Assembly (NCBI GenBank): GCA_964510165.1
Contig: CAZEBC010000005.1
Coordinates: forward strand, 1 to 13,083
Direction of reading: 5' to 3'
DNA from: an uncultured bacterium
GTDB lineage: Bacteria > Abyssobacteria > SURF-5
Length of the DNA stretch: 13,083 bases
The position numbers are program-made. This document shows positions 1-13,083 of this stretch, in pieces. Positions within the stretch are counted from its first letter, which is position 1; each line of letters begins with the position of its first letter.

Positions 1-3000
1 CCGGGCGAGGGCCCGCTCGATGCGCCTGCCATGCTGATAGGTGAAGCTCCCGGGAAGAAGGAAGACGAATCCGGCAGGCCGTTCGTCGGACCTGCCGGGA
101 AATTCTTTGATGAATTGCTCGGGGAAGTCGGGATCAGGAGGGAAAGAGTATTCATAACGTCGACCGTCAAGTGTCTCCCGGTCGACTCGCAGAAGCCGGC
201 GCGCGAAAGCATAGAGGCGTGTAATCCCTATCTGCAAGGGCAGGTGGAACTGGTGCGGCCGGGCATCCTGTGTCTGATGGGAGGCGTGGCCGCCAGGACG
301 ATGCTCGGCATTGACAGAGTGGCCGATATCCGTGGCAGGATACTCGATCTGCCGGAGGCCCGGTACCTCGTAACATATCATCCGCAAGCGGCCCGGAGAT
401 TCCCCGACATTCGTAATAAGATGCGAAGCGATTTCGAGCTTCTGGCGGAGCACATATGTTAAAGGGCTGTCCCGCAATTGAGAACCCGGCGAGGCGACGC
501 CGCGATCGAAGCCCCTCACCCTGCCCTCTCCCGGTGGGAGAGGGTTGGGGTGAGGGCTGCCTTACTCCAATATCTCGATCAGGTCCAGCCTTTGCGCCGT
601 GAACTTGATGACATCGCCCGGGGTGAAACGGGACACATCGTCCGACGGGATGATGTAGAGCTTGCCGAAGCCGGCGTCAACAAGCATGTCCTGGTCTTCC
701 TTGTTGGTTTCCAGGACTCTCGCGATCATGGTTACCCTGGAAGGGTCTTGGGTCTGCCAGTCGAAGTCATTCTCCAGCAGCCGTGGCGCTCCCGATTCGA
801 GGAAGGCGATTTCTCCATCAATGTAAGGGACGCAGAGGACAATCTTCTTGTTTTTCCCCAACCTCGATTCATTGACGGCGAACCCCATGAAGTCGAACAG
901 GCGAATAACAGTCCCCCCGTCAACCCTGACCTCGACCGTCTGCTCGTAGGACATCCCGTCAAGTTTGCAGCGGGCCGTAAAGGAAAGAATCTCGACTTCC
1001 GCAAAATGCTCATTATTGAAATGCATTGTCAATCCTTTTCGTGAGGCCGCGAGGCTCGTTACCCAGGGCCGTCTCCAACCCCTCGATCCATCTCTGCGCC
1101 ATCTTCTCTTCACCGACTTCATTCGGATGAAGGCCATCATATGTGTCAGTGTCGGGGGAGAAGCTCTTGGCCTGGTCAACCAGAATGATGCGGGATGCTT
1201 TCGTGTTCATGTCCCTGCCAAGGTCTTCAATGCGATCATTCAGCTCGTCAATGTTTCGATTCACATCCGCGTCGCCGGTTGGTATCAATGTGGCAAGAAG
1301 AACGATGACGCGTGGGTTATCGGTGCGAAGCGTGGTTATGATTTGCCTCAATTCCTTGACCGTGCTCGAGACACTCTGCCTTTCGAGCATATCATTTGTT
1401 CCGAGATGCATCAGAACGATGTCCGGGGTGTAGTCCTTCAGCCACTCCGACAGTTTGCCGTCTTTCGATCCGTAAAAACCGTCGAGGATTTGGTCGGAGC
1501 GCCATCCCCAGTGTCCTTCGTGATCTCGATCGAATGAATGCTCCTTATAGTCGGGCCAAGTCGGATTGCCTCTCCAGTTCGAAGCCACAGAGCCGACGAA
1601 ATCAAATTGAATGCCGGAGTCGACGAGCTTTATCCATAAATTGTAGCGATAGCTTTTGTGAACTCCGTCGCCCTGCGTGATGGAATCCCCAAGCGGCAGG
1701 ATGCGTACCGGCTCGAAGCGGTCTGCGTCAAGAGAAAAGGCATTTCCCCTCAGTGCACTGTCACTACTAATCTCGCCCTCGGCCCCATGCTTGCCGACCC
1801 ACTCCGCAGGAGCAAATACAGTGACCGCCGCTAGGACGGCACATCCCGTAACGACTGCAAAGATTGCGGTGACGTGCCTCCACCGGTTCTGTTCTCGCCC
1901 TTTCACTCTCGCCCTTTCACTTTGTCCCCGGTTTTAAGATTATAATACCTTTTCTCGCCAAGGCAATTCAATTGGCTCATTGTATGCGGGCAATGCGTCT
2001 CAAAAGTATACGACTATTAAGAGGTGTTTTGTGCCATATTGCGACAGCGAGGGGATTCAGGGCCTAAGCGGATAAGCGACACCGGACGAAGTTATGTATA
2101 ACATATTTATTAGCAATAGGTTGTGGCATACGAGTTTTCTCTGCGGGGGTGTCTTTCGTTGGCATAGCCTATGCTTGCATACTTATGTAGAGAAATAAAT
2201 GATATGGAAAGGAGTGAGCTCAATGGCTCTGATCAGACACAGAATGCTCAATCCGTTCACCGGCCAGGCCGATTGGTCTGAGCTTGTGGGCGGCATGTTC
2301 TATGATTTCCCTAGACTGCACACCCACGAAGCGTATCCATTCTATGGCATGGAGGGGGGACTTGAGGCAGCCTGGCATCCGTCTGTGGACATGTACGAAG
2401 ATGACGACAAGGTGTACGTGAAGCTTGATTTGCCGGGCATGAAGAAAGAGGATATCGACATTTCATTTGATGGCCACGTTCTGAGCATCACCGGCCGACG
2501 GGATGAGGAGAAGGAATTCGGTGACGATGTTTGCTATTGGTTCAAGGAACGTCGGAGCGGAGAATTTCATCGGTACGTTCATGTGCCGCTCGAGGTCGAC
2601 GGCGACGACCTGAAGGCAAATTTTGAGAACGGCGTCTTGACAATAAGCGTTAACAAGGCTGAAAAGGCCAAGAGAAAAAAGATAGCGATCGAATCCGGAA
2701 CTACAACCTCGTAAGAGGATAATATAATTCCTCTTGACCCGCAACTCAGACAGGAAGCGCCGGCGCGCACATGCGTGCCGGCGCTTTCCAGTCATGCTCA
2801 ATCTCCGTATCGCCTGCGGTTGCAATTTCAGGGCGAAATGTGGTAAGCTTTTTCCCAATCAAAACTTGGAATACAGACCTTTTCGATTGCACACTTCTGG
2901 CAGCTTGCGTGGAGTTCTTCATAACCCACGAAACCGACCACGACACATTTTCACTCCGGACGTCTTTAGGGAAGAGAGAGGGGACGCGCGGGTGCAGCGG

Positions 3001-12000: not shown

Positions 12001-13083
12001 CAAGCGCAAGTACGTCCACGCCGAGGCCGACCGCGAGATGGGCGAAAACATAATCGTCCGTGTGCGCTCGGAAAACTCGATGACGGGCATCGGCGAGACG
12101 ATACCGCGCGAATATCTCACGGGCGAGACGCCCGCCTCCGTGATGACCACTCTGCGCGGCACGTTTGGCCCGCGCCTTGTCGGCGCCAGATTCGGCGGAT
12201 TCGAAGATGTGCTCGACTATCTGTCTGATATGGTCGTCATGAGCCACGAGCGATCGCTCGGCGCGGCCTTCTGCGCGGTCGATCTGGCGATGATCGACCT
12301 CGCGGGAAAGTATTTCCTGCGACCAGCCACCGACGCGGCTGGTGGAGTCAAGAAGAAAAGGATCCATTACACCGGCCCTGTCTCCGGCGAAGGGCAATGG
12401 AGCACCGCTAAGACCGCCCTGAAGCTCAAGCTCGCCCGATTCTCGGAGGTGAAAGTGAAGGTGGGGCTCGACGGAGACGAGGACCGAGTTGCTCTCGCGA
12501 GACGCATCATGGGCCGCAAGGTTGATTTGCGAGTCGACGCCAACTGCGCATGGCGTCCGGAGCGGGCGGTCGAACAAATCTCCAGGCTCAGGCGTTACAA
12601 TATCTCGTCGGTTGAGCAGCCGGTCGGCGGAAAGGATTTCGAGGGACTGCGTTACGTGCGGAACCGCTGCGGGGTGCCCGTCATGGCCGATGAGTCGGTC
12701 TGCACCTTAAGCGACGCCTCACTCCTTGCCGAGATGGGCGCGTGCGACATATTCAATTTGCGCCTCGCCAAGTGCGGCGGCATGACTGGCACGCTCAAGA
12801 TGCTCGAGATGGCGCGCCAATATTCCATTAAGTGCCAACTCGGCTGTCTCGTGGGCGAGACTTCGATTCTCGCGGCGGCAGGACGCCATCTTGCTTTTGC
12901 CGTTCCCGATTTCATACATGTCGAAGGCTCTTACAACCGCTTTCTGTTGAGCGACGATGTGGCGCACCCGCATCTTGGGTTTGGCTTCAACGGTTCCGCC
13001 AGGCCCCTCGAAGGCTACGGCCTCGGCGTTCACCTCGATGAGACGGCCCTTGCCGCGTGCACCCTGGAACGCAAGAGCATTGG

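Follow-up and report, generated by a model that had tools for sequence, protein, structure and literature searches.

Introduction

Among bacterial GH3 proteins, the literature consulted has one solved role, that of OlsH, the acylation of ornithine with free fatty acid. Passages of the report that describes it (PMC12493201) state that OlsH, OlsG and OlsI form one operon in planctomycetes, and that its authors expect other substrates for bacterial GH3 proteins, other homologs likely using other amino acids. The operon of Singulisphaera acidiphila, as presented in those passages, combines a GH3 ligase, an alpha/beta-hydrolase and a methyltransferase, and the locus analysed here does so too.

Two further enzyme families bear on this locus. 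Sections of PMC10502145 and PMC11117315 give alpha-keto acids as the substrates of the methyltransferase family of MppJ, SgvM, MrsA and ApyS, and H244 and H296 as the metal histidines of SgvM. For the enolase superfamily, portions of two reports (bioRxiv 10.1101/2022.03.03.481873; PMC5808125) describe the beta-6 lysine as the second acid/base in racemases and epimerases and as merely electrostatic in the one-base OSBS and MLE. Planctomycetes are also the source of the stieleriacines, N-acyl dehydrotyrosines of which some are methylated (PMC12479983); these resemble the product considered below in being N-acyl dehydroamino acids, but the enzymes proposed for them are NasY, a ThiF-family protein and a nitroreductase, and neither GH3 nor enolase appears in the main text of that paper. 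The literature searched, for the most part papers free of subscription and judged by title or opening of the abstract, gave no description of a cluster of GH3, methyltransferase and enolase-superfamily genes.

The cluster and its conservation

The window, by which we mean the whole stretch of 13,083 nucleotides analysed, comes from an uncultured subsurface bacterium. An earlier note had described a cluster of nine genes in it, and indeed nine ORFs, all on the + strand, with the following Pfam domains, occupy 2992-13083:

2992..3768, + strand: alpha/beta-hydrolase 1, 258 aa, start codon uncertain (Pfam Hydrolase_4)
3765..4748, + strand: MobA-like nucleotidyltransferase-fold (NTP-fold) protein whose N-terminus is hydrophobic, either a signal or a membrane anchor (Pfam NTP_transf_3)
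4817..6190, + strand: radical SAM/SPASM enzyme, accessory, with CxxxCxxC at 124-131 (Pfam Radical_SAM and SPASM, NCBIfam, motif)
6305..7987, + strand: core gene for a plant-like GH3 acyl-adenylate/amide ligase outside the OlsH clade (Pfam GH3, motifs, trees)
7984..9030, + strand: MppJ/SgvM/ApyS-type metal-dependent C-methyltransferase with Arg143, His254 and His307 (Pfam Methyltransf_31, best PDB matches, conserved residues)
9054..10151, + strand: DUF362 protein with a C-terminal 2x[4Fe-4S] domain (Pfam DUF362 and Fer4)
10277..11116, + strand: alpha/beta-hydrolase 2 with Ser103-Asp219-His249, which partners the enolase-family enzyme in the core (Pfam Hydrolase_4)
11101..11976, + strand: LpxL/PatA-type membrane acyltransferase with HxxxxE at 118 (Pfam Lip_A_acyltrans, E 3e-46)
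11957..13083, + strand: enolase-superfamily enzyme, MLE subgroup, Arg-type subfamily, core gene cut short by 2 residues at an N gap (Pfam MR_MLE_C)

Successive ORFs are separated by -4, 68, 114, -4, 23, 125, -16 and -20 bases. It is from this spacing alone that we infer co-transcription of the cluster genes, since promoter-like and terminator-like sites across the stretch stayed at chance level (7 vs 6.3 and 14 vs 12.4, respectively). The last gene does run into a run of N at its end, as previously noted, and a 100% identical database protein of 377 aa indicates that it is short by 2 residues. Contigs of four DNA runs (three studies) cover the stretch piecewise and none spans it; the best of these runs may be its source.

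The gene order, said earlier to be fixed in five of five loci, is kept in all eight family loci, with all nine genes together on one contig in five of them. Eight of the nine are found in G009, and seven in G007 and G008, in which genes one to three are found on a separate contig, up to its end; G001 has seven, being without the radical SAM and DUF362 genes. There is one copy per genome, in constant order and with 56-79% identity across the family. The GH3 orthologs at 63-73% in 8 of the 9 other family genomes were recovered as reported, together with a match at 48% in one genome of another family. The family genome with no GH3 match is G003 (77% complete), in which one contig starts within the enolase gene and encodes its last 46 residues. 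The best NCBIfam matches given before were likewise reproduced, all below cut-off: OlsH for the GH3 ligase (NF052613, its sole NCBIfam match, 104 bits against 620), 2-ketoarginine methyltransferase for the methyltransferase (TIGR04543, 104.8 against 425) and muconate cycloisomerase for the enolase-family enzyme (132 against 335).

The GH3 ligase

The ligase carries Pfam GH3, GH3_M and GH3_C, all over cut-off, and the three nucleotide-binding motifs (TSGTT at 101, ATEA at 323 and GGLYRYDICD at 383). Its identification with OlsH was considered and ruled out by its score, by an identity of 25% and by two trees. In the class of G011, 113 of 301 genomes do pass the NF052613 cut-off; the cluster ligase and OlsH fall on opposite sides of a branch supported at 100 (FastTree, 45 rows), and a tree uniting them was rejected with a p-AU of 7.5e-13 (IQ-TREE test, 17 rows). 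The two share the motif I serine (S115 in OlsH, S102 here) but differ by a helical insertion, about 40 residues long, which the cluster ligase has in common with plant GH3. Plant acyl-acid amido synthetases (OsGH3.8, JAR1, GH3.12) match the cluster ligase along its full length, over about 505 residues with E 2e-32, whereas an OlsH member gives local matches to plant GH3 (E 3e-11). By these alignments the cluster ligase appears nearer to the plant hormone ligases than OlsH is, although, unlike them, it is bacterial and stands in an operon with acyltransferases. Its choice of acid and amine is not readable from its sequence.

These results do not sustain the proposal that the cluster extends the olsH-olsG-olsI layout. 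Besides the separate clade of the ligase, the methyltransferase (348 aa) belongs to another family than the 191-aa methyltransferase adjoining true OlsH, which we took as OlsG by its position there (E 0.31). Against the OlsI model, with a cut-off of 385, hydrolase 1 reaches 22.5 bits and hydrolase 2 has no match at E<=0.001. The order also differs, genes adjoining true OlsH reading hydrolase-methyltransferase-GH3, and the cluster has six further genes. The likeness that would remain is a first product that is probably an N-acyl amino acid.

MenH, MenC and MenE of the menaquinone pathway are a hydrolase, a one-base enolase-family enzyme and an adenylating enzyme, a set that the cluster mirrors. 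That the locus is a known pathway under another name, either this one or the ornithine lipid pathway (OlsH/G/I), is suggested by this mirroring and by OlsH being the only NCBIfam match of the ligase. However, no cluster protein passes as OlsH, OlsG or OlsI, the enolase-family enzyme is below the cut-offs of the MenC models, and in five of five genomes MenD is below and MqnC above cut-off, so that these genomes use the futalosine route. We regard this explanation as largely refuted and very improbable.

A Streptomyces plasmid carries a related GH3 (29%) within a type I polyketide cluster, which counts against a lipid product; in all, plasmid searches found two distant GH3 members and six enolase-family matches at 27-31%, four of them annotated as dipeptide epimerases.

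The Arg-type enolase-superfamily enzyme

The enzyme has the capping domain and barrel, the KxK motif and the Asp-Glu-Asp metal ligands of the MLE subgroup (K166, K168, D194, E220, D245), and also keeps H21, R51, E301 and E323. At beta-6, where the five best-aligned solved relatives have lysine, it has R269, and so do 120/120 top homologues; His21 is kept in 115/120. None of the five best PDB alignments is to an Arg-type member, and Arg-type and Lys-type rows are split in the tree by a branch supported at 100. The subfamily comprises 825 proteins at E<=1e-60, which are labelled in databases as 'dipeptide epimerase' or 'muconate cycloisomerase'. Dipeptide epimerases and N-acylamino acid racemases are recognised by lysines at beta-2 and beta-6. 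Here K168 is present and the second catalytic lysine is Arg269 throughout, and we therefore set aside the name 'epimerase' given to this gene earlier.

The Asp pair of dipeptide epimerases binds the free amine. This pair is absent from the end of beta-8, where E323-G-S is found as in the N-succinyl-amino-acid racemase 2P88, a feature that fits an N-acylated substrate. The predicted structure (pLDDT 95.7) has 2P88, an N-succinyl-Arg/Lys racemase, as its nearest neighbour (TM 0.91), with the same fold, KxK, three metal ligands and the Glu at the beta-8 end. The Arg-type enzyme differs from known racemase and epimerase relatives in the beta-6 arginine, in the conserved His21, Arg51 and Glu301 and in its biosynthetic gene context. 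That the nearest structure is a racemase counts against reading the enzyme as an eliminase.

The reading closest to the earlier note is an N-acyl lipid of a D-configured, beta-methylated amino acid, in which Arg269 or His21 would be the second base of a racemase or epimerase; the methyltransferase would act at an earlier stage, on a free alpha-keto acid, and transamination would follow. The nearest structures and sequences are indeed N-succinyl-amino-acid racemase and dipeptide epimerases, His21 is widely kept, pectate lyases employ arginine as a base, and free keto acids are substrates of MppJ-type enzymes. Nevertheless, the beta-6 lysine of published racemases and epimerases is missing in all 120 homologues, and no aminotransferase is found among the nine genes. 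Moreover, the UbiD decarboxylase gene downstream in G015 and G135, and, in G049 and G103, the fusion of hydrolase 2 to a ketopantoate-reductase domain upstream of the enolase gene, better suit an unsaturated or keto product. We consider a racemase unlikely here.

The methyltransferase, hydrolases and acyltransferase

The presence of a C-methyltransferase, claimed before, is supported. Its best PDB matches are MppJ and 2-ketoarginine methyltransferase, and both metal histidines (H254, H307) and the conserved arginine (R143) align with MppJ; R143 and H307 are found in 119/119 homologues and H254 in 118/119. It is an MppJ-type enzyme of the alpha-keto-acid C-methyltransferases, which would act at C3 of an alpha-keto acid or of an enol/enamide equivalent. 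It differs from MppJ, SgvM, MrsA and ApyS in scoring far below the family cut-offs (81.7 against 400 bits for ApyS, NF050150), and it forms a family of its own of at least 277 proteins tied to GH3 clusters. In the five planctomycete-phylum genomes that have it, it lies each time between a GH3 and an Arg-type gene.

Hydrolase 1 (GFSIG at 97 with Ser99, Asp203, His233) is 62-66% identical in five family loci and is also found upstream of the radical SAM gene in G049, G103, G127 and G147; it may be a thioesterase or lipase releasing the acid for the ligase. In P0001 and P0002, hydrolase 2 and the enolase-family enzyme form one fused protein. The nucleophile of hydrolase 2 is Cys in 4/20 aligned homologues; we predict an acyltransferase or thioesterase.

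With two alpha/beta-hydrolases of lipase-like families, and patatins beside the core in three loci, the cluster could serve salvage or remodelling, the hydrolases and the enolase-family enzyme degrading or rearranging an existing acylated compound that the ligase re-ligates. MLE-subgroup enzymes are mostly catabolic, which also speaks for it. However, an ATP-dependent ligase, a SAM-dependent methyltransferase, a radical SAM enzyme and an acyltransferase are anabolic, and genes for a dedicated ACP, for two ketosynthases and for FabZ- or FabG-like proteins stand directly upstream of the core in three genomes (G133, G059, G110). We find salvage quite improbable.

Distribution of the core

The Arg-type subfamily is the real core of the system. 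Its recurring trio is the GH3 ligase, the Arg-type enzyme and hydrolase 2. The core was thought confined to the source phylum, which does not hold: in the planctomycete phylum (that of G011), 28 of 201 genomes contain it, and its homologues also include proteins named Deltaproteobacteria, Syntrophobacteria and Desulfobacca. The GH3 clade is carried by 27 of these 28 genomes, even where the genes are far apart, and by 35 of the 201 overall; eight of the 35 have no enolase match at E<=1e-40, and two of these show a lower-scoring one beside GH3. Kinship among the genomes makes these counts overstate independence. At 26 planctomycete enolase loci examined, GH3 adjoins the enolase gene in only 11 and the methyltransferase is present in only four, which counts against the pathway proposed below. 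In G113 a fatty-acid-hydroxylase::GH3 fusion lies upstream of the enolase gene. This fusion, the ACP and ketosynthase genes, the patatins and the LolA-like or DUF1571 proteins give the core a lipid setting, which speaks for that pathway.

At metagenome loci, GH3, hydrolase 2 or an acyltransferase adjoins 33/48 Arg-type genes and 0/28 Lys-type genes (18/29 vs 0/17 for loci of at least 4 kb). None of the three partners is found at 15 of the 48 Arg-type loci, and 10 have an acyltransferase with no GH3 in view, which suggests that the enolase-family enzyme may not need the GH3 product. A distant acyltransferase of the LpxL/PatA-type family adjoins the enolase gene on the same strand at 10 of the 48.

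Whether the product is a membrane lipid or a diffusible acyl amide that serves as signal, antibiotic or cofactor can be weighed from these neighbours. Some locus variants include SDR, AMP-ligase and UbiD genes and others a haem-oxygenase-like oxidase gene; these variants resemble small-molecule clusters, as does the polyketide setting of the related GH3; the characterised methyltransferase relatives in the literature consulted all serve natural products, and the ligase is nearer to hormone ligases than to OlsH. Yet the LpxL-type acyltransferase is present in 8/8 family loci and in G001, LolA-like or DUF1571 proteins are encoded within or next to the cluster (a LolA-like gene upstream in 6/7 relatives with upstream sequence), the single copy, constant order and degree of identity resemble those of housekeeping envelope genes, and the nine genes include no exporter and no regulator. 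A diffusible product seems unlikely to us, to about the same degree as the D-amino-acid lipid.

A proposed pathway

Of the modified N-acyl amino lipid predicted earlier, an acylated lipid product is still probable, whereas its framing on OlsH and its epimerase step are dropped. We tentatively propose, with a little less than even confidence, that the operon makes an acylated amino-acid lipid whose head group is beta-eliminated and then C-methylated. Hydrolase 1 would free a fatty acid, which the ligase would adenylate and join as an amide to an amino acid, probably a hydroxylated one. The Arg-type enzyme would hold the free carboxylate on Mg2+, Lys168 alone taking the alpha-proton, and would eliminate a beta-leaving group, which may be water or an O-acyl group that hydrolase 2 or the acyltransferase had attached. 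The resulting enamide, or enol/alpha-keto acid, would have a nucleophilic C3 for the MppJ-type enzyme to methylate, and the LpxL-type enzyme would add a second acyl chain.

A wider extension, which we judge possible but doubtful, is that the trio marks a class of acyl-amino-acid lipids that is widespread in bacteria and undescribed. An eliminase new to the enolase superfamily would form their dehydro or alpha-keto head group on a lipid-linked substrate, and lineage-specific enzymes would then C-methylate, reduce, decarboxylate or oxidise it.

The cluster marks a second large bacterial GH3 clade, tied to an Arg-type enolase subfamily that, despite its database labels, is without the second lysine of the epimerases. 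If the pathway is right, an enolase-superfamily enzyme and an MppJ-type methyltransferase would take part in membrane lipid synthesis, through a bacterial GH3 clade nearer to the plant enzymes than OlsH is, and planctomycetes and subsurface bacteria would have a new enolase-superfamily reaction and a lipid class that is possibly a biomarker. The core pair occurs in several single-contig planctomycete-phylum genomes, so that knockouts and lipidomics in cultured relatives may be feasible.

Accessory genes

The radical SAM, DUF362 and NTP-fold proteins are best explained as lineage-specific tailoring parts. The NTP-fold protein (hydropathy 2.28 from residue 3) has the hypothetical TTHA0179 as its sole PDB relative, and its Atlas clusters are all NTP_transf_3; among the loci examined it is limited to the source class, with 0/26 at planctomycete enolase loci. 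For DUF362 or Npun_F2552 the literature searched gave no function. DUF362 and LarA belong to the same Pfam clan (PMC11770544), and the best Foldseek matches of the cluster protein are all of the LarA family of 2-hydroxy-acid racemases, weak and partial in fold (E 2e-5, TM 0.35-0.42); the protein may provide an accessory redox or isomerase step.

Relatives of the radical SAM enzyme at 53-59% occur in 10/201 planctomycete-phylum genomes and adjoin GH3 in four (G049, G103, G147, G166); the gene contexts of more distant relatives gave no consistent clue. The gene was not found in G001, which is 96% complete. The joint absence of radical SAM and DUF362 genes there had suggested an obligate pair, an idea that we dropped because DUF362 adjoins the methyltransferase in G133 and G110, two genomes that do not have the close radical SAM relative. 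Lastly, a frameshift in the DUF362 gene of G004 is only apparent and corresponds to an N gap.

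The cluster and its flanks

From position 2992 to the end of the window nine plus-strand genes follow in succession, encoding alpha/beta-hydrolase 1, an NTP_transf_3 protein, a radical SAM protein, a GH3 enzyme, a methyltransferase, a DUF362 protein, hydrolase 2, an LpxL-type acyltransferase and an enolase-family enzyme (genes 1 to 9). Four junctions overlap and the widest spacing is 125 bases. Pfam and NCBIfam bear out the gene families assigned in the earlier note, the best NCBIfam matches all lying below their cut-offs. Gene 9 is short by 2 of 377 residues relative to an identical database protein; a run of Ns follows it, and the contig then continues. 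At this level of similarity, each gene is single-copy in the genome (G000).

The cluster is real and conserved, as had been claimed. Indeed, the order of its nine genes is unchanged in 8 of 8 family loci (56-79% identity), five of which carry all nine on one contig. In G007 and G008 the first three genes lie on a second contig, which ends within or just past the radical SAM gene, and the contig of G009 begins inside gene 2, the top gene 1 match elsewhere in that genome reaching 33%. Within the phylum, GH3 was present in 10 of 11 genomes searched. A member of another family, G001, has seven cluster genes; a search of its genome found no radical SAM gene and no close DUF362 gene (best match 37%). 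Passages of PMC6121073 assign the Ca. Abyssobacteria SURF_17 lineage, from anoxic subsurface water, to Ca. Hydrogenedentes.

The following features flank the cluster, the first four upstream and outside it:

1-462, uracil-DNA glycosylase fragment (Pfam)
562-1035, minus strand, ORF without a Pfam match
1013-1906, minus strand, GDSL/SGNH hydrolase with a hydrophobic N-terminus (Pfam)
2199-2714, Hsp20 (Pfam)
13203-14008 of contig C5, past the N run, enoyl-CoA-hydratase-like ORF (labelled from its translation; adjacency across the gap unsure)

Neither the GDSL/SGNH hydrolase nor the Hsp20 gene was found adjoining the cluster in the relatives' loci, and no enoyl-CoA-hydratase-like ORF was seen after it there. 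A GC-rich inverted repeat at 506-562 (hairpin of -41.6 kcal/mol as RNA) has 219 matches spread over 119 of the genome's contigs, and in 180 cases the match is at least 30 bases long. Contigs from all four runs cover it to great depth, and it resembles a REP-type repeat.

The GH3 enzyme is distinct from OlsH

In the passages of PMC12493201 at hand, OlsH acylates ornithine with a free fatty acid, the second chain comes from OlsI, and the OlsG gene sits between the two. The cluster had been read as an OlsH-like extension of this layout. True OlsH loci pass the cut-off in 113 of 301 genomes; of seven that we widened, four have the order hydrolase, methyltransferase (about 190-250 aa), GH3, and the remaining three show two of these genes under the ORF filter used. 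The window GH3 shares 25% identity with an OlsH from such loci, the two fall on opposite sides of a 100* branch, and a tree forcing them together is rejected (17 of the available rows), which rules out OlsH as its identity. Furthermore, a helical stretch of some 40 residues, missing from OlsH, is retained in the window GH3, which aligns end to end with plant GH3s; the OlsH member shows no such end-to-end alignment with them. Nor does the proposed extension of the layout hold for the methyltransferase, which does not significantly match the small one adjoining OlsH.

The enolase-family enzyme

This enzyme retains K166 and K168 as well as D194, E220 and D245, which bind the metal, and ends beta-6 with Arg269. 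Arg occupies this position throughout the best 120 of 825 homologues, among which H21 is found in 115, R51 in 119, and E301 and E323 in 120 each. In a FastTree phylogeny a 100* branch separates the Arg-type rows from the Lys-type rows. According to the published passages at hand, the beta-6 Lys is the second acid/base in racemases and epimerases, and in OSBS and MLE is needed for charge only. Its replacement by Arg tells against the epimerase label of the earlier note, and we rank a one-base eliminase above an epimerase. In an epimerase, Arg269 or His21 may serve as the base; the structure model, which is confident, is closest to N-succinyl-amino-acid racemase. An OSBS role is unlikely, since the five genomes tested have MqnC and lack MenD.

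A core pair beyond the phylum

The system had been placed in this phylum. Among 201 genomes of the planctomycete phylum of G011, the enolase gene gave a match at E<=1e-40 in 29; G111, whose match has Lys, was left out of the Arg-type count, and the other 28 have Arg at beta-6. The GH3 clade of the window occurs in 35 of the 201 and together with the Arg-type enzyme in 27, counts that, like the 28, come from kin rather than independent genomes, and we attach no weight to a p-value here. The true core of the system is therefore not confined to one phylum. Of 26 enolase loci fetched, GH3 and hydrolase 2 each adjoin the enolase gene in 11; the methyltransferase does so in 4 and DUF362 in 2. Of the best 80 of 482 metagenome loci, 48 are Arg-type and 28 Lys-type, the remaining 4 being unreadable or of another kind; a same-strand GH3, hydrolase 2 or acyltransferase accompanies 33 of the 48 and 0 of the 28, respectively. 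Hydrolase 2 also occurs as a fusion, with the enolase-family enzyme in two proteins and with an AMP-ligase in one. The arrangements seen were:

(a) G133, G059, G110: ACP, FabZ- or FabG-like genes and two ketosynthases, then GH3, methyltransferase, DUF362 (two genomes), DUF1571, enolase gene, hydrolase 2
(b) G049, G103, G127, G147, G166, assembled from short contigs: hydrolase 1, radical SAM, GH3, DUF362 protein, LpxL-type acyltransferase, family-2 glycosyltransferase; elsewhere in G049 and G103, a hydrolase 2::ketopantoate-reductase fusion ahead of the enolase gene
(c) G068, G087, G207: MinD-like ATPase, hydrolase, enolase gene, GH3, hydrolase, patatin
(d) G015, G135: SDR, hydrolase, GH3, enolase gene, AMP-ligase, UbiD
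(e) oxidase-linked: haem-oxygenase-like protein in G018 and L256, fatty-acid-hydroxylase::GH3 fusion in G113
(f) acyltransferase-enolase two-gene form without GH3, ten metagenome loci: L240, L246, L247, L252, L253, L255, L258, L259, L260, L269

The GH3s of (b) are the closest planctomycete-phylum kin of the window GH3. In (f) the LpxL-type acyltransferase gene overlaps the Arg-type enolase gene, whose product has His at position 26 in 9 of 10, and a small methyltransferase or exported protein gene comes next in three copies.

Proposed chemistry and product

The solved relatives of the methyltransferase are MppJ and 2-ketoarginine methyltransferase. In the alignment, His254 and His307 fall on two histidines of MppJ and Arg143 on an MppJ Arg that presumably has a role in carboxylate binding; the three residues are conserved in 118-119 of 119 aligned homologues (of 277 found). 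SgvM binds its metal through H244 and H296, and enolisation of the keto acid is brought about by that metal (PMC10502145, in part). ApyS methylates the beta carbon of peptide-bound aminopyruvate (PMC11117315, in part), so the MppJ-type family can act on an N-acylated keto acid.

We infer that the cluster parts all act on a small carboxylic acid, at its alpha and beta carbons. In the simplest chain, GH3 would form an amide, beta-elimination would follow with abstraction of the alpha proton by the enolase-family enzyme, the MppJ-type methyltransferase would methylate the beta carbon, and a second acylation would complete the product. Enolase-superfamily dehydratases give 2-keto acids, and UbiD enzymes accept unsaturated acids. 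The sister clusters of G049 and G103 carry a keto-acid reductase domain, and the DUF362 protein weakly resembles the LarA fold. However, the amine substrate is not readable from sequence, a visible GH3 is missing from many Arg-type loci, and a related GH3 works in a polyketide cluster.

We favour a lipid as the product because of the acyltransferase, the fatty-acid-synthase modules and the LolA-like neighbours. In 6 of the 7 relatives having upstream sequence, gene 1 and a LolA-like gene (L041:14688-15464, L043, L044, L045, L232, L233) stand head to head; the orthologue of G000 (57%) lies on another contig, C11, and Hsp20 occupies its place at the cluster.

A GH3-started acyl-amino-acid pathway is of a kind already known (PMC12493201, in part). 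Within the literature searched, subscription papers and supplements aside, we found no description of the GH3 clade, its Arg-type partner or the MppJ-type tailoring, nor do the available parts of the 2025 planctomycete review and the stieleriacine paper hold one; the cluster is undescribed within that literature.

Other GH3 genes

Another type of GH3 cluster occurs in a planctomycete-phylum genome (L227:6426-13348) and on a Citrobacter plasmid (L317:6929-14878), where three or four radical SAM genes, of the B12-binding kind in L227, and an acetyltransferase-like gene come after GH3. GH3 genes of Patescibacteria-group genomes (L034, L035, L039) cluster with those of Bacteroidota. A second GH3 of G009 (L050:9503-11107) is very divergent (26%) and sits on a long branch.
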